A DNA stretch of 64,000 nucleotides from an uncultured Nitrososphaerales archaeon (GCA_963706445.1 OY970160.1:352001-416000), one strand, 5' to 3'. Shown: positions 33,259-46,524, counted from the stretch's first letter. Notes: a model not told the origin generated them from the letters alone. Made by a program: numbers and translations.

Positions 33259-33688
33259 CGAGACCATCTACATCGACGCCACCAACCAGATAGCGGGGAG
33301 GCTCTCCTCGAAGGCGGCCAAGCTCATCCTCTCGGGCAAGAGAGTTATCATCGTCAACGCAGAGAAGGCACTGATTTCGGGTGACCGCACCTCGGTCATC
33401 AACCAATGGAAGGAGAAGCTTGAGTTGTCCAGCCACGTCAACCCGATCTACGGCCCCATCCACCCGCGGAGGCCCGACAACATCCTCCGAAGGATGATCA
33501 GGGGGATGGTCCCGAGGAAGAAGTCAAAGGGTCCCATCGCGATGAAGAGGCTCAGGGTGTTCATAGGGGTCCCGTCGTCGGTCGACGCCACGAAGCTCAG
33601 CAAGTTCGAGGAGACAACGGCGACCCGGCCGATCCCAGTCTACGTCACCATGGGCGACCTTTCAAAGAGCCTGGGATGGAACGAATAA
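33248..33688 (+). CDS. rpl13: 50S ribosomal protein L13
   Basis: IDA..IAGRL, NAEK, IRGMVP. Confidence 0.96.
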   Translation: MSSNETIYIDATNQIAGRLSSKAAKLILSGKRVIIVNAEKALISGDRTSVINQWKEKLELSSHVNPIYGPIHPRRPDNILRRMIRGMVPRKKSKGPIAMKRLRVFIGVPSSVDATKLSKFEETTATRPIPVYVTMGDLSKSLGWNE

Positions 33689-33690
33689 CC

Positions 33691-34122
33691 ATGCCAACCT
33701 CTACTCCGAAGGCCCAGGTCAAGAAGCCGCCGAAGCTATACTCAGGCGCGAGGAAGACAGCACGTGCCACGGCTGCCATAGTCCTAGGTGGTGGGAAGAT
33801 CAGGATCAACGGGACCCCGGTCGAGATCTGGGAGCCGGAGCCGGCGAGGCTGCACCTGCTGGGCCCCGTTCTGGTCGTGGGGGAGCTGAGAGAGAAGTAC
33901 GACATCGATGTGAGCGTCGCCGGAGGAGGGTTCATGGGCCAGGCTGACGCCGCCGCCATGGCAATCGCCAGGGCCTATGTCGACCAGGTCAGAGGGAGCG
34001 AAGTTCGGGAGAAATTGAATGCATACAATAAATACCTGCTATCGGGCGACCCGCGACAAGCTGAGCCCAAGAAATTCGGCGGTCCAGGCGCCCGCAGAAA
34101 GCGCCAGAAGAGCTACCGCTGA
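33691..34122 (+). CDS. rps9: 30S ribosomal protein S9
   Basis: GARKTARA, GGGFMGQA, EPKKFGGPGAR..QKSYR. Confidence 0.97.
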   Translation: MPTSTPKAQVKKPPKLYSGARKTARATAAIVLGGGKIRINGTPVEIWEPEPARLHLLGPVLVVGELREKYDIDVSVAGGGFMGQADAAAMAIARAYVDQVRGSEVREKLNAYNKYLLSGDPRQAEPKKFGGPGARRKRQKSYR

Positions 34123-34158: not shown

Positions 34159-34767
34159 GTGCGCAGCCGGTTTCCTCCTCGGTTAATCAGAATCACCCGA
34201 GCCGAATTCTTGAGAGTAATGAGCACATCGGCGACGACCAAGGAAGCATCAAAGAAGCTTGGAATACCTTGCGAAGCCTTCCGTAGAATGCGAAGAAAGT
34301 TCCGAAACCCTCCGCAGAATTCGGAAGGCATTGACTTTGTAGCACTTTATCGAGCAAGACCTCCTATACCTAGAGTCATCATCCGAACCAAAGATGGGCG
34401 TCGATATGTAGGAACTCTGGTCGGCACTGAGGGTTGCGTTACATGCGCATACGCCAAACCCGCAGACACCACAGAACTCGTGATAGTAGTTGAAATGACC
34501 GATAGGGATTGGATTGTGAAGTTCTCGGAAGAGGTTGGGCTGACCCCTCCGCCAGAGATGGGCAGGGATGTCAGTCCGAAGCGAAAGGCCAAGTTCCGTC
34601 GAGCTCCCTCTGGCCTGCGCGCTTTGAGAATCCTCAAGGAGATACTCCCGTATTTGTATGGCCAGCGTCTCAGGGAAGCTCAAAGGGCGATTGAATACTT
34701 CTCTCCTTCTGGCCATGTGAAAGGAATGGTGAGGGCAGCCGAAATCTGGGGAGACTTGCGCCTATAG
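34159..34767 (+). CDS. Free-standing LAGLIDADG-like homing endonuclease (single motif) with N-terminal HTH-like region
   Basis: YVGTLVGTEGCV motif helix, 'VEMTDRDWIVKF', 'ALRILKEILPYL..R.REA'; lower GC; own TTAAATA box at 34132. Confidence 0.7.
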   Translation: MRSRFPPRLIRITRAEFLRVMSTSATTKEASKKLGIPCEAFRRMRRKFRNPPQNSEGIDFVALYRARPPIPRVIIRTKDGRRYVGTLVGTEGCVTCAYAKPADTTELVIVVEMTDRDWIVKFSEEVGLTPPPEMGRDVSPKRKAKFRRAPSGLRALRILKEILPYLYGQRLREAQRAIEYFSPSGHVKGMVRAAEIWGDLRL

Positions 34768-41175: not shown

Positions 41176-42375
41176 CTACCTTCCCCCATCCGCTCTGAGG
41201 ATTGGAGCCGTCGTCGTCTCGTTCCCTTCATCGCTTCCCTTGAGGGGCCGCACCTGCGGAACCGCGCAGGCCATTATGTTCTTGCTTGCTAGGTCATCCC
41301 TATCCCATGTTTTATCGCACACTGGGCAGTACAGCTTCCTGTCCCCCAGCGGTACGACGCGGGAGCCGCAAAGGCAGTGTGAGGACGAACCTCTCGGATT
41401 AACGTACCAATCGGGAATGCCTACCCATCTTGCTTTGTAATCTATCTGCCTCTGGGTCTCTCCGAAGACCCAGGAGTTCATCCTCCCCCTGAATGCTGGT
41501 CCCTGTCCGTTTCCTTTCCGATACAGCTTCCTTATCCCTTCAGATTCTCCATCTTGATGCCGAGACGGTTCACTCTAGTTCACCTTGTAATTTACAATCG
41601 CCTGGGTGACTCCGTTTACCCGCTGCATGGTCCGATCCCTCTCGCGCCTTCCGTACTTGGCGAGGAGCTCCTTGCCTATCCTCCTGTCTCCCCGGGTCTT
41701 CTTTGCTATCCTAGCCCTGATTTCCCTGTACCTCTTCTTGATCTCGACCACCTCACCCAGCTCGTCGAACTTGTGCTCGGAGCCATCAGTGGCAGATGCG
41801 GTGACATTGCTTTCGTTGATGTCTACGCCGATGTATCCTACGGGTTCGACCATGTGGACCTCTTTGGAGAACGCTACGGTTACCGCGCGCTCCGTTACGG
41901 TGACCGAGCCGCTCTTCAAGCTGGGGTCGTCAATGAACGACGAGTGGTAGTCCGAGCCCTCAAGAGTAAGGAATACGAAGTGTCTTGGTGTTGTGGGGAT
42001 CCTCAGAAGGAGGTGGTTGAGCTGGTTGAGCTGGTAGAGCTGGTACGACTGGTTGTCGAGCTTGAGGGATGCCTTTCTGATGTAGGGGATTCTCTTCCTG
42101 TTCTTGTTCCTATAGACAGAATATGCCACCTCACAAGCAGAGAGAATGGAGTGTGTATGGAGGCCATATGCCTTTAGATGTGGGCAGGCGAGTTGGATCA
42201 GGCCGAACCTGTTCATGGGCTTTTCCTGGACTGCGATTCTAATGGTCCTATTACACATCAGACGGAAGTCCTCGAGGAGTGAGGAAAGCTCTTGCGAGGC
42301 TGTGTATCTGACGGAAACAAATTTCACTGCCCAAATTTTGTTCCGTGAGGCGGATTCGGCTTGCTTCGCAAGCAT
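41176..42375 (-). pseudogene. tnpB: TnpB (IS200/IS605-IS607 family RNA-guided nuclease) pseudogene; no transposase next to it
   Basis: RuvC-I GVDINE, RuvC-II MENL, Zn finger CLC..CPVC, RuvC-III DRDDLASKNI; stop and frameshifts near 41535-41585. Confidence 0.88.
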
Positions 42376-42524: not shown

Positions 42525-42553
42525 GTCTGGGAGATTTACAGATGACCCCAGAC
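42525..42553 (+). promoter_or_regulatory. Kink-turn/K-loop overlapping the rpl7ae start codon
   Basis: GUCUGGG-A-GA / GAU-GA-C-CCCAGAC: tandem G.A pairs plus a 7-bp stem; TTATAA at 42501. Confidence 0.7.
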
Positions 42554-42928
42554 AAGAAGCCCTACTACATCAAGTTCGAGACCCCCAAGGAGGTCTCAGA
42601 AGCCGCCTACGAGGTACTCAGGCAGGCCTCGCGGACTGGCAAGGTCCGCAAGGGGACCAACGAAACGACGAAGGCCATCGAAAGGGGACTTGCGAAGCTC
42701 GTGGTGATAGCCGAGGACGTCGTGCCCCCGGAGGTTGTCGCCCATCTGCCCATCCTCTGTGACGAGAGGAAGATACCATATGTCTTCGTGCCTTCGAAGG
42801 ACCAGATAGGGCCCGCCATCGGCATCGACGTCTCGACAGCTGCGGCTGCGGTGCTTGAAGCCGGCGAGGGCTCCCAGATCCTCGACCAGGTCACCCAAGA
42901 GCTTTCGAGGCTGAAGAAGCCAGCATGA
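42542..42928 (+). CDS. rpl7ae: 50S ribosomal protein L7Ae
   Basis: [26 protein letters not shown]. Confidence 0.97.
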
Positions 42929-43143
42929 GCAGCAAGAGAGAAGCTGAGACACTAACCCCGTCGGAAGTGGTGCAGATTGTGGGGAGGACAGGAGTAGCCG
43001 GCGAAATAACCCAAGTCAGGGTCAAAATCCTAGAAGGGAAGGAAAAAGGGCGTATTTTGACCAGAAACGTCAAAGGACCGATTAGATTGGCAGACGTGCT
43101 CGTTTTAAGAGAAACTGAGCGAGAAGCGAGAAAGCTCAAATAG
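42925..43143 (+). CDS. rps28e: 30S ribosomal protein S28e
   Basis: [29 protein letters not shown]. Confidence 0.97.
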
Positions 43144-43200
43144 AGCTTATTTTCCCATTCAAAGTTCTAATCAGCCTTATATCCTTTAAATGAGGCGCAG

Positions 43201-43938
43201 TCAATCCCTTAGTTCAATGACTAGTTCGAAACTGGCGAGTCTTCGGGTTGAGAAGAGTAGGTCGAAAGCAAAACCCTCGCTCTCTCTCTTGTCGGGGTGC
43301 CATAAGAGTCGTCCAACTTGGTCCAGCCATTTCCTATTCGCACCAGAAAGGATTTCGATCAAGTAGCTATTCTTTCTAGTCACTATTTCTATGCCCCTCA
43401 GAGAATGTCTTCACCCTCGCCTGCTTGCCAGCCGGGTCCGAACAGAGGTTGGCTCCAAGCGGATCTTGTTGACGAGCGATAATCTGGCGATTCCAAGTAG
43501 GCGTCTGTCACTATTGATTACTGCGAAAATGCGACCATGGGGAGATTCGATGGGCTCTGGCAGGACTAAACTACTTTCCGCGTCACTTAATCCGCCTTGA
43601 AAATCGGCCGCGATACGACCTTCCATCGCAATCGAGTGGATTGAATCATATTTTGGCTGCATGGAGTCATCGAACAACGCTCTACGCACCAAAGTCGAGT
43701 TCAGGACAATGTTGTGCTGTAGGTTGTCAGACAAGTTTCAGGGTCGGACGTATTCACGAGACGTTCCACCACATTCCTTTGCAATCTGCTGAACTATGCC
43801 CACGAGCTTGTCGGCGAAAACCGGATTGGCTGTAACGACCCTTACCTCACCCCATGCGGGGTACCCATCGCCGTATGCGAGGCCCGCGAAATGTGCAAGT
43901 TCGGAGTCGACGACTACGGTATGTGCGGTTCCCCACAA
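43201..43938 (-). pseudogene. Two-motif LAGLIDADG (DOD) endonuclease interrupted by two in-frame TGA codons
   Basis: Three track ORFs share one frame; motifs LAHFAGLAYGDG and ADFQGGLSDAES; TGA at 43738-43740 and 43411-43413. Confidence 0.75.
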
Positions 43939-44105
43939 GGACGATTGTAACTCACGAACCGCGAAACATTAGGCGGGCCTTCGCACTCTAGCACCCACTA
44001 TCCACTTACTATCTTTTCGCAGGAGCCTAGAGATGCTATTCCCAACGAGCCCTTTATATCCCAAGTTCCAAAAGCCCACGAATGAAAGGGGTGCGGTAGT
44101 CTGAG

Positions 44106-44288
44106 ATGTATGTTCCAAAGAAATGCGCGTTCTGTGGGAAGGAAGTCAGACTCGGCTCCGGCATCCTGTTCGTGAAGAACGACGGGTCTACGCGTTCCTA
44201 CTGCTCCTCAAAGTGCAAGACCAACGAGCTGAAGCTGGGTCGCGATCCGAGGAAGCTGAAATGGGCGCGGGGGACTAACAGGAAATGA
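44106..44288 (+). CDS. rpl24e: 50S ribosomal protein L24e
   Basis: CAFCG..G.G...VKNDG...YCSSKC, PRKLKW. Confidence 0.96.
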   Translation: MYVPKKCAFCGKEVRLGSGILFVKNDGSTRSYCSSKCKTNELKLGRDPRKLKWARGTNRK

Positions 44289-44707
44289 GTTCGACCTCCG
44301 AAGAGACGCTGATCGTCGTAAAGCCGGACGGTGTCAAGAGGGGGCTCGTCGGAGAGATAGTCGGCAGGTTCGAGCGGAAGGGGTTCGTGATCAAGCGGCT
44401 CCAGATGCAGACGATGTCGAGGTCAATGGCAGAGGAGTTCTATTCTGTCCATAAGGACAAGCCGTTCTTCGGCGAACTGGTGTCGTTCATCACCTCGGGC
44501 CCGGTCGTGGGCGTTACACTTTCGGGGAGAGACGCGGTCGCCACAGTAAGGAGAATGGTCGGCGTGACAAAGAGCTGGGAGGCGGCCCCGGGGACCATAA
44601 GGGGGGACTTTGGCCTTGGTTACACAGACAATATGATCCACGCGTCCGATTCGGCCGAGAGCTTTACAAAGGAGAGCGGGGTCTTCTTCGCCAAGACGAG
44701 AGGGTGA
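44285..44707 (+). CDS. ndk: Nucleoside diphosphate kinase
   Basis: KPDGVKRGL, PGTIRGDF, N.IHASDS. Confidence 0.97.
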   Translation: MSSTSEETLIVVKPDGVKRGLVGEIVGRFERKGFVIKRLQMQTMSRSMAEEFYSVHKDKPFFGELVSFITSGPVVGVTLSGRDAVATVRRMVGVTKSWEAAPGTIRGDFGLGYTDNMIHASDSAESFTKESGVFFAKTRG

Positions 44708-44733: not shown

Positions 44734-46524
44734 TTGTCAGAACCAAGCGGACGGATGAGACAGCCGGTAGTAGTTATTCTCGGACACGTCGATAGTGGAA
44801 AGACCTCCCTCGCAGACGCATTAAGGGGCACCGGGGTACAGGCACGCGAAGTAGGCGGCATCACACAGGAGATCGGCGCAAGCTTCTTCCCGATGGAGAC
44901 CCTGAAGGAAATCTGCGGCCCGCTCCTCGACAGGGCAGGAGGGGAGCTTCAGATACCCGGGCTTCTGATGATAGACACCCCGGGGCACGCGGTCTTCTCC
45001 AACCTCAGGCTCAGAGGGGGCTCGGCTGCTGACATCGCGATACTCGTGGTGGACGTGCTCAAGGGGCTTGAGAATCAGACCCTGGAGAGCATCGACATAC
45101 TCAAGCAGCGCCACGTCCCGTTCCTGGTGGCGCTCAACAAGATCGATATGATCAACGGGTGGCGCAAGGGGAGCAAAGGACCCCTCCCGCAGGTGATGAA
45201 GGAGCAGCTCCCCCAGTGGAACGACGAACTCGAGGAGAGGCTCTACAACGTGGTGGGAGGGCTTACGCGCCTCGGCTTCCAGTCGGACGCGTACTACCGG
45301 GTCAAGGACTTCCGCCAGCAGGTGTCCATCGTCCCAGTGTCAGCCCGAGCTCCCGTCGGGATGCCGGAGATGCTCGCGATGCTGATAGGCCTTGCCCAGC
45401 AGTTCCTCAAGGGCAAGCTCGTGATGGATGGTGCGAAGGGAGGGAGGGGGATAATCCTGGAGATGCAGGAAGAAGTAGGCATCGGGGAGACCGCCAACGT
45501 CATCCTCACCGAGGGGTCCATCAACGTCGGGGATTCCATAAGCCTAGTAAGAAAGGACGGTGCATTCAAGTCGAAGGTGAAGGCCCTTTTCATGCCGAAG
45601 GCCCTCGACGAAATGCGGGACCCCAGGGACAAGTTCACCCCCGTCGACTCCGTCTATGCCGCGGCAGGAGTCAAGTTGGTGTCTCCCGACCTGGTTGGGG
45701 TCGTCCCGGGGACCTCGGTGGCCACCTTCAAAACAGACAAGCAGTTCCAGCAGCTCAAGGACGAGATGGAGAAGGAACTCTCCAACATCGTCGTCAAGAC
45801 GGACAACATGGGGGTCATAGTGAAGGCCGGGAGCATCGGGGGGCTCGAGGCCCTGCTCAGGATGCTCGAGGAGCGCGGCATCCCCGTGCGCCAGGCGGAC
45901 ATCGGGGACATATCGAAGAACGACATCATAGACGCCCAGGTGGTTGGGGACCACGACCCATTCCTCGGGGCGATCCTCGGGTTCGATTCGAAGGTCCTCC
46001 CGGAGGCGAAGGAATACGTCGGGGTCGGGCCGATCTTCGTCTCGGCGATCATATACGAGGTCCTCGACAACTACGTGAACTGGGCGGAGGCCAAGAGAGA
46101 GTCAGACGAGAAGGCGGCTCTTTCGAGTCTTACCCGCCCGTGCAAGCTCAAGGTGATACCGGGGGCGTTCTTCAGGAACAGGGACCCCGCGGTCTTCGGG
46201 GTGGACGTGGTCGTCGGGAGGCTGAAGCCAAAGATCAAGCTGATGTCCGTCGAGGGGGTCGAGTTGGGGACCGTCGAGCAGGTCCAGGACCAGGGGAAGG
46301 CCCTGACAGAAGCGCGCGAGGGGGACAAGGTTGCCATCTCTGTTGACGGCCCGACACTGGGGCGCCAGGTGAGGGAGAACGACACCATCTACACCATGCC
46401 CAGAAGTCACGAGGCAAAACTGCTGCGGACGAAGCTCGCTGGCTCCCTGACCGAGAAGGAGCGGGAGGTCCTTGATGAGATAGTCAGGATAAAGTCGGCG
46501 TCCGACCCACTGTTTGGTTTCTAG
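44734..46524 (+). CDS. infB: Translation initiation factor aIF5B (IF-2)
   Basis: GHVDSGKT, GGITQEIGA, DTPGH, NKID; no intein. Confidence 0.96.
   Translation: MSEPSGRMRQPVVVILGHVDSGKTSLADALRGTGVQAREVGGITQEIGASFFPMETLKEICGPLLDRAGGELQIPGLLMIDTPGHAVFSNLRLRGGSAADIAILVVDVLKGLENQTLESIDILKQRHVPFLVALNKIDMINGWRKGSKGPLPQVMKEQLPQWNDELEERLYNVVGGLTRLGFQSDAYYRVKDFRQQVSIVPVSARAPVGMPEMLAMLIGLAQQFLKGKLVMDGAKGGRGIILEMQEEVGIGETANVILTEGSINVGDSISLVRKDGAFKSKVKALFMPKALDEMRDPRDKFTPVDSVYAAAGVKLVSPDLVGVVPGTSVATFKTDKQFQQLKDEMEKELSNIVVKTDNMGVIVKAGSIGGLEALLRMLEERGIPVRQADIGDISKNDIIDAQVVGDHDPFLGAILGFDSKVLPEAKEYVGVGPIFVSAIIYEVLDNYVNWAEAKRESDEKAALSSLTRPCKLKVIPGAFFRNRDPAVFGVDVVVGRLKPKIKLMSVEGVELGTVEQVQDQGKALTEAREGDKVAISVDGPTLGRQVRENDTIYTMPRSHEAKLLRTKLAGSLTEKEREVLDEIVRIKSASDPLFGF

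Follow-up and report, generated by a model that had tools for sequence, protein, structure and literature searches.

A mosaic rps28e allele beside a putative homing hot spot in the ribosomal operon of an uncultured Nitrososphaerales archaeon

Introduction

Archaeal homing endonucleases are known from rRNA introns and from inteins. The LAGLIDADG core fold has the order alpha-beta-beta-alpha-beta-beta-alpha and is duplicated in monomeric enzymes. Classical exon co-conversion tracts are continuous from the cut site and derive from a single event. In the literature that we searched, free-standing LAGLIDADG genes were found only for organelles. In phage T4, homing by free-standing endonucleases and co-conversion of their flanks are both established, and phage intron-less homing involves cut sites that lie away from the endonuclease gene (PMC2988022).

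We describe a locus from an uncultured Nitrososphaerales archaeon in which a gene family designated HEG1 lies between the ribosomal protein genes rps28e and rpl24e. The stretch of DNA analyzed, hereafter the window, comprises 64,000 nucleotides (GCA_963706445.1 OY970160.1, positions 352001-416000) of a source genome that consists of a single contig of 1.82 Mb with a GC content of 0.58 and falls within a GC-rich Nitrososphaerales genus. The locus resembles the free-standing endonucleases of phage T4 in that the gene sits between conserved genes and outside any intron or intein, it is patchily distributed among relatives, and sequence of a neighboring conserved gene travels with the element or is exchanged around it (PMC2988022). 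It differs in that the T4 enzymes are of the GIY-YIG or HNH class, with mapped cut sites and a setting of phage co-infections, whereas HEG1 is of the LAGLIDADG type and resides in a cellular archaeal chromosome; moreover, the shared tract in rps28e is not contiguous with the insert.

The best structural match to HEG1 is to the archaeal monomeric, rRNA-intron-encoded enzymes I-DmoI, I-Tsp061I and I-PorI (TM 0.69-0.74 on target). Like these, HEG1 is a single chain with two predicted LAGLIDADG helices and an acidic residue in each. Unlike them, it is free-standing, antisense to a ribosomal-protein operon and outside any intron or intein; its sequence identity to the group is only 16-18%, and at about 238 residues, against about 190 for the I-DmoI group, it has extra N- and C-terminal elements. 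As in exon co-conversion by group I introns and inteins, flanking host sequence would be replaced during repair. Unlike classical co-conversion, rps28e is composed of mosaic segments with different nearest relatives, and the pattern extends across two resident ORF families.

Results

Codon usage of rps28e

The operon around rps28e contains the following genes, with positions counted from the first letter of the window.

42542..42928, plus strand: rpl7ae, the upstream operon gene (Pfam Ribosomal_L7Ae, E 1.4e-28), normal codon usage, GC3 0.79
42925..43143, plus strand: rps28e, 72 codons (Pfam Ribosomal_S28e, E 7e-30), codon-usage outlier
44106..44288, plus strand: rpl24e (Pfam Ribosomal_L24e, E 1.2e-15), normal codon usage, GC3 0.75
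44285-44707: ndk, after rpl24e
44734-46524: infB, after ndk

The initial annotation, from a hand count, had described rps28e as a gene of foreign-looking codon usage that encodes a canonical protein. The count, 35 of 72 codons ending in A or T (GC3 0.51), proves exact. The codons that it named are present (TTA, CTA twice, CGT, CGA, ATT three times and AAA four times) and are scarce genome-wide, with relative usage of 0.01 for TTA, 0.07 for CTA, 0.05 for CGT, 0.07 for CGA, 0.15 for ATT and 0.17 for AAA. The product is canonical both by its Ribosomal_S28e match and by 99% identity to the S28e of several genus members, so the changes in rps28e are synonymous.

The codon outlier test suggested at that time was run against fifteen Pfam-confirmed translation or neighboring genes of the window (S17, S4e, L5, S14, S8, L6, L18, L15, L22, S6e, L13, L7Ae, L24e, RpoN and Ndk). 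Their GC3 averages 0.80 (sd 0.05, range 0.71-0.87), which places rps28e at z = -5.8; the log-likelihood of its synonymous codons, given its amino-acid sequence, gives z = -4.7. When the S28e protein was redrawn 100,000 times with synonymous codons at genome usage, 18.6 +/- 3.7 codons ended in A or T, and the probability of reaching at least 35 was 3e-5. Long ORFs genome-wide have a GC3 of 0.75 ± 0.07 with a first percentile of 0.555, and 1.4% of 72-codon windows, taken from ORFs of at least 300 amino acids, contain at least 35 A/T-ending codons. Together with the entire insert described below, rps28e forms a low-GC island at about 42950-44100. An equally A/T-rich rps28e was found in no insert-free relative; GC3 values there are 0.59-0.86, and the relatives with the lowest values have flanking genes that are themselves near 0.70. 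The odd A/T-ending codon usage of rps28e is confirmed as real.

A second junction in the window, rps9|rpoN, was considered as an independent replicate and rejected. Between these genes (window 34159-34767, 33676-34122) the source genome alone has a 202-aa ORF, with a remnant in G069 and zero matches in Pfam or NCBIfam; in the 51 other genus genomes read, the gap is 3-9 nt. In nearly all of those 51, the final 43 rps9 codons are shifted towards A/T. The shift is genus-wide without the insert and therefore unlinked to it; it is a property of the gene and not of the insert. Because conserved local dips in GC3 occur without mobile DNA, composition by itself is not enough, and the case for rps28e is built on allele sharing.

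Just upstream of rpl7ae, on the minus strand (window 41176-42375), lies an IS200/IS605-type TnpB remnant in two ORFs, one with a Cas12f1-like TNB match (E 3e-14) and the other with a weak OrfB_IS605 match; G041 has a similar TnpB remnant near rpl24e. Farther downstream, infB (aIF5B/IF2) carries an insertion of about 1.5 kb in G024 and G012 (L034:5341-6955, L035:5418-7032), G051 (L093) and G069 (L096), after about residue 30-39, near the N-terminus of the GTPase. This insertion, which the window infB lacks, is probably an intein.

A decayed LAGLIDADG gene in the insert

Three further features separate rps28e from rpl24e.

43147..44042 (approximate): insert of about 0.9 kb between rps28e and the putative rpl24e promoter, GC 0.44-0.54
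43201..43938, minus strand: HEG1 pseudogene, one two-motif LAGLIDADG frame with in-frame TGA at 43738-43740 and 43411-43413
44043..44105, plus strand: conserved rpl24e upstream region that bounds the insert on the right and has a TATA-like motif, TTTATAT, at 44053-44059

The gap between rps28e and rpl24e is 0.96 kb here, compared with 10-23 nt in other families of the order, apart from a single case of 217 nt. Homology to insert-free relatives ends at 43127-43165 and returns at 44043-44052. The region at 44043..44105 aligns at 77-93% with sequence directly upstream of rpl24e in HEG1-bearing loci and matches the rpl24e upstream region of insert-free relatives as well; its TATA-like motif suggests that it may serve as a promoter. 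In G017 (L037, G017:C2:1-3000) this upstream region and an ATG come straight after rps28e and are followed by sequence unrelated to rpl24e, which was not found in the remaining 2.1 kb of that contig; this may reflect another insertion at the rpl24e start, or a misassembly.

Three antisense ORFs at 43201-43938 make up a single reading frame with two TGA codons and zero frameshifts, and with 64% identity to an intact homologue that occupies the same place in G011. Because rpl7ae ends in TGA, this codon is a genuine stop in the source genome. The frame of the window copy is thus interrupted twice, at one Gly and one Arg conserved in the family consensus, while both LAGLIDADG motifs, LAxFAGLAYGDGY and FQxGLSDAEGS, are retained. 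The window HEG1 has been inactivated recently by these two nonsense codons. That rps28e abuts a LAGLIDADG pseudogene had been stated from the start, and is approximately right: 57 nt separate the rps28e stop from the end of the antisense frame at 43201, so that the two genes stand tail to tail, and by its fold, both motifs and two in-frame TGA codons the neighbor is a true, decayed LAGLIDADG gene.

Across 25 HEG1 homologues, the D/E and G positions of the motifs are invariant or at least 90% conserved, and the acidic residues are invariant. An AlphaFold2 model of the intact G011 protein, built with 25 sequences, has a pLDDT of 90.7 and a pTM of 0.87. Foldseek matches the model best to I-DmoI (E 4e-7, probability 1.0), with further matches at probability 1.0 to I-Tsp061I, E-DreI, PI-PfuI and PI-SceI. 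The modeled family has the core LAGLIDADG fold and two helices with acidic residues. Judged by its sequence and modeled fold, HEG1 is a LAGLIDADG homing-endonuclease family, for which site-specific cleavage and homing are predicted. Among curated models, its sole match is Pfam LAGLIDADG_3 (E 0.0075), with a score of 16.9 bits that falls short of the 22.5-bit cut-off; fragments of the window copy have zero matches in Pfam, HEG1 has zero in NCBIfam, and all 30 of 30 database homologues are labelled hypothetical and carry no Pfam domain. The family is too diverged for existing models, and membership is therefore based on fold and motifs.

No direct or inverted repeats were found flanking the insert, and an Rfam search of the insert returned zero families at E <= 1 and no intron RNA; HEG1 is, on these grounds, a free-standing gene. 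A transposon or IS was rejected, given the lack of terminal repeats, the single unvarying HEG1 site per genome, and a fold that is that of an endonuclease rather than a transposase. A group I or archaeal intron, or an intein, was likewise rejected, the insert being intergenic, antisense and without an Rfam family. HEG1 genes have a GC3 of 0.52-0.63 (0.54 in the window copy) in hosts whose flanking genes have 0.63-0.87. A search for a close donor of the window copy found none, the best matches having 64-72% DNA identity and at most 75% protein identity.

The rps28e|rpl24e junction in related genomes

Wherever both flanks are readable, HEG1 lies antisense between rps28e and rpl24e: in 6 of 55 genus genomes, in L092 and in 11 metagenome contigs. 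Most copies are intact. A survey of the spacer in the 54 genus genomes with rps28e gave the following contents.

16-193 nt: 21 genus genomes
about 1 kb, with HEG1: G000 (the source genome), G011, G051 and G069, and also G022 and G042 at contig ends
HEG2, in the position and orientation of HEG1: seven genus genomes, full-length or as remnants
3.7-kb cassette: 15 genus genomes, and four jointly with HEG2
other content: a few genus genomes

In a maximum likelihood tree of eight genes (4.8 kb) with well-supported clades, HEG1 is spread over at least four clades and HEG2 over at least five. The constant insertion site and the patchy phylogenetic spread give indirect support to the predicted cleavage and homing by HEG1. 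Some relatives have an intact gene at the site and others a nonsense-bearing or truncated one or an empty site, a range that matches the homing-endonuclease life cycle, in which invasion is followed by decay and loss. The junction carries the sequence signature expected of a hot spot for a site-specific homing element that undergoes gain, decay and loss.

HEG2 encodes a protein of about 420 amino acids (L057:4571-5842 in G047, L033:914-2185, L032:952-2205 and L055:5689-6963), whose N-terminal part is HTH-like and which contains two strings similar to LAGLIDADG motifs, FGFLxGMIIGD and LVQGIAESDGSVS. These two motif-like strings, and they only, make HEG2 a candidate LAGLIDADG protein. It has zero matches in Pfam, NCBIfam or PDB sequences, a profile comparison with HEG1 gave no match (hhalign probability 0.5%), and its AlphaFold model, from four sequences only, is poor (pLDDT 42).

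The 3.7-kb cassette consists of four genes, as exemplified by L054:3344-6870 (G056). One encodes a vWA-domain protein (Pfam VWA, E 1e-7) and another a 454-aa GTPase of the tubulin/FtsZ family (Pfam Tubulin, E 5e-10, with a GGGTGG motif); the remaining ORFs, of 185 aa and 311 aa, are without clear domains.

In about 14 of the 54 genus genomes, the usual rps28e stop is missing and the frame continues for about 22 more codons (L039:612-896, L040:635-916; also G041, G047, G061, G002, G007, G052, G048/G020, G006, G013 and G058). The extension encodes a conserved hydrophobic tail, e.g. A(I/L)WL(I/L)ALSLGLALA(V/I)QL, which is membrane-like and odd for S28e. The tail is present in seven of seven HEG2-bearing genomes and in some insert-free ones.

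A mosaic rps28e allele

Two segments of rps28e require separate description.

43012..43098, plus strand: central A/T-rich tract of rps28e (gene nt 88-174, codons 30-58, 87 nt)
43102..43116, plus strand: rare 3' variant, rps28e codons 60-64, GTT TTA AGA GAA ACT

Each of the 35 A/T-ending codons also occurs in at least one other genome (0/35 unique), and in-place recoding peculiar to the source genome was rejected for this reason. The 5' third of the gene has mostly the majority codons of the genus. For the rare codons of the window gene in codons 30-64, 43 of 78 sharings (55%) are with endonuclease-bearing genomes, a class that counts HEG2 genomes (e.g. G041 and G005) along with HEG1 genomes, against a baseline of 23%. 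The corresponding value is 25% for codons 1-29, and 25-30% for the flanking genes rpl7ae, rpl24e and ndk, with no excess in rpl7ae (30% against a baseline of 24%) or in rpl24e (20-25%). The excess decays with distance from the insert: codons 30-64 show it, and codons 1-29 and rpl7ae do not. It is also one-sided: rps28e is affected, rpl24e is not.

Over the 87 nt of the tract, the window sequence differs from G041 at 5 positions, from G005 at 6, from G069 at 7, and from the metagenome contig L156 at 6. It differs from G052 at 10, from G051 at 15, and from all other genus members at 16-27 (mostly about 22). The residents beside the four most similar tracts are HEG2 in G041, a HEG2 remnant in G005, a broken HEG1 in G069, and HEG1 in L156. 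Flank divergence to G041, G005 and G069 is about 20%, from which about 17-22 differences would be expected in the tract; at an identity of 92-94% (6-8% divergence), the tract diverges three to four times less than the flanks.

The source genome and G041 belong to a well-supported five-genome clade with G018, G059 and G060, which lack the tract, and G005 and G069 belong to another clade with G051, which also lacks it. Placing the source genome, G041, G005 and G069 in one clade costs 84.7 lnL units and is rejected (AU p = 0.004, nominal like all p-values here, because the tract limits and the four-genome group were picked after inspection of the data and the genomes are related). Ancestry is shared with element-bearing genomes against the tree, by nominal statistics. 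The rare variant at codons 60-64 is common to the HEG1-bearing G011, G022, L152 and L157 and is nearly matched in G042 and L150. The sharers are from distant clades; because the stretch is short, this association is weak and only nominally significant. Third-position identity in 28-codon windows is 0.79-0.86 for the tract, equal to the background maximum of 0.79-0.86, and is thus extreme without lying far beyond background; the sharing of rare states is the stronger signal.

At 6 of 20 endonuclease-bearing loci the GC3 of rps28e is at least 0.15 below that of its flanks; among 36 endonuclease-free loci this holds for 1 (Fisher p = 0.006 and Mann-Whitney p = 0.03, for loci that are not phylogenetically independent). 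Beside HEG1 or HEG2, rps28e has a GC3 of 0.51 in the window, 0.54 in L150, 0.60 in G069 and G041, and 0.61 in G005 and L156, where rpl7ae has 0.85. In such loci rps28e is often near the composition of the element and well below that of the host.

According to the initial annotation, the whole gene had been replaced or recoded during homing, which would make it the likely cleavage target; in our analysis rps28e is a candidate target at most. The part of this that survives is that variants in the insert-proximal two-thirds are shared preferentially with endonuclease-bearing genomes across clades. Replacement or recoding of the whole gene does not hold, since the 5' third is genus-like, S28e is typical of the genus, and different segments of the mosaic gene have different nearest relatives.

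Discussion

We see about an even chance that the mosaic rps28e allele was made by gene conversion or recombination at a homing hot spot. The spacer would be a site occupied in different species by HEG1, HEG2 and/or the 3.7-kb cassette, where homing-linked double-strand-break repair and recombination would repeatedly convert the adjacent part of rps28e. The result would be a mosaic with a genus-like 5' third and, at codons ~30-64, rare A/T variants circulating among endonuclease-bearing genomes of several clades. The converted segment would behave as part of the mobile haplotype and would drift to the GC3 of the element (~0.55-0.6), away from that of the host (~0.8). Homing-associated gene conversion or hitch-hiking predicts the preferential sharing of variants near the insert. 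We infer endonuclease-induced gene conversion as the cause, and likewise the direction of transfer.

The evidence does not describe one recent co-conversion event. The tract is found beside two unrelated ORF families, HEG1 and HEG2, and the linked HEG1 copies have 64-72% DNA identity to the window copy versus 92-94% for the tract; the HEG1 genes being more diverged, and the tract occurring beside HEG2 too, the tract did not arrive with the window HEG1 in a single recent event. The last 42 nt of rps28e, between tract and insert, differ at 10-13 positions in the tract-sharing genomes and are not unusually similar, which a simple continuous co-conversion tract does not predict; the tract is neither continuous with the element nor equally old. 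Furthermore, rps28e is often ordinary beside an intact HEG1 (G051, L092 and L154, where it is GC-rich) or a full-length HEG2 (G002, G007 and G047). The two ORF families, the HEG1 divergence, the dissimilar 42 nt and the ordinary loci together argue against a single recent event.

It is possible, if rather doubtful, that an A/T-rich rps28e was inherited vertically with drift from an ancestor common to the source genome and the genomes closest to it, in which A/T-biased mutation and weak codon selection, acting on so short a gene, had brought it to fixation, and that the endonucleases are neighbors by coincidence. Across most of the genus rps28e is slightly below its flanks even at loci without an endonuclease (mean -0.05), the sister genome G041 is also low (0.60 versus 0.82 in its flanks), and the dip in rps9 is a conserved one unrelated to an insert. 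Three of the tract sharers, G069, G041 and G005, also rank within the closest four genomes when raw flank distance is used (0.19-0.20, versus at least 0.21), so part of the sharing may be vertical. Against such a history stand the absence of the tract from G018, G059 and G060, clade-mates of the source genome and G041, and from G051, the relative of G069 and G005; the rejection of the four-genome clade; a tract far less divergent than its flanks; the restriction of the excess sharing to the insert-proximal part of the gene; and the near confinement of deep GC3 dips to endonuclease-bearing loci. A foreign rps28e, brought in whole with the insert from a low-GC lineage outside the genus, would account for the single low-GC island and would suit the GC3 of 0.27-0.51 found for rps28e in other families of the order, but it is highly improbable: S28e is 99% identical to several genus members versus 65-85% to sampled members of the order outside the genus, DNA identity to family-level genomes outside the genus is at most 79%, and the gene is a mosaic of variants already within the genus. 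An origin in another family was specifically rejected, as the tract is unlike all other-family representatives in protein (e.g. EGKDKG and GPVRL versus EGKEKG and GPIRL) and in DNA (21-31 of 87 bases differ), and no DNA match above 79% was found outside the genus.

Selection on the nucleotide sequence itself, whether for a cleavage-resistant target in rps28e or through overlap with another nucleic-acid element, appears unlikely, even though the tract is conserved much better than neighboring synonymous sites and the endonuclease genes. The one-sided effect would be in keeping with cleavage on the side of rps28e, by analogy with phage intron-less homing, and T4 free-standing endonucleases do cut at some distance from their own genes (PMC2988022). 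In its specific form, this explanation would have the A/T-rich segment as a cleavage-resistant allele sweeping between species since the LAGLIDADG endonucleases next door cut the GC-rich allele; we regard that, too, as improbable. A fixed immunity substitution in rps28e was sought in the intact-HEG1 genomes and not found: no position is fixed for different states between intact-HEG1 and endonuclease-free genomes, the best being codon 61 (5/7 versus 1/36), and so no sign of an obligatory immune recoding was seen. The tract is absent from the loci named above, where an intact HEG1 or a full-length HEG2 stands beside an ordinary rps28e; in three of the four tract-bearing genus genomes (the source genome, G069 and G005) the endonuclease gene is broken or truncated; and the Rfam search found no family.

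Co-conversion and intron-less homing are precedents for the kind of mechanism that we favor, conversion at a homing hot spot. Its setting, an unannotated, free-standing LAGLIDADG family tied to one junction of an archaeal ribosomal operon, is new to the literature searched. If the proposed mechanism is correct, a neighboring universal gene, rps28e, bears the compositional and recombinational footprint of an endonuclease, and the junction would provide a natural allele series of empty, intact and decayed sites in which the homing cycle of uncultivated archaea could be followed. Intact copies of HEG1 would be candidate rare-cutting enzymes with a conserved natural target. Should the segment instead prove to be a cleavage-resistant allele, the locus would be a cellular archaeal counterpart, in a core ribosomal operon, of phage intron-less homing and marker exclusion. 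If conversion at the junction is the correct reading, selfish endonucleases would drive localized exchange of core markers between archaeal species, with consequences for marker-gene phylogenies and for the detection of gene transfer from codon usage.
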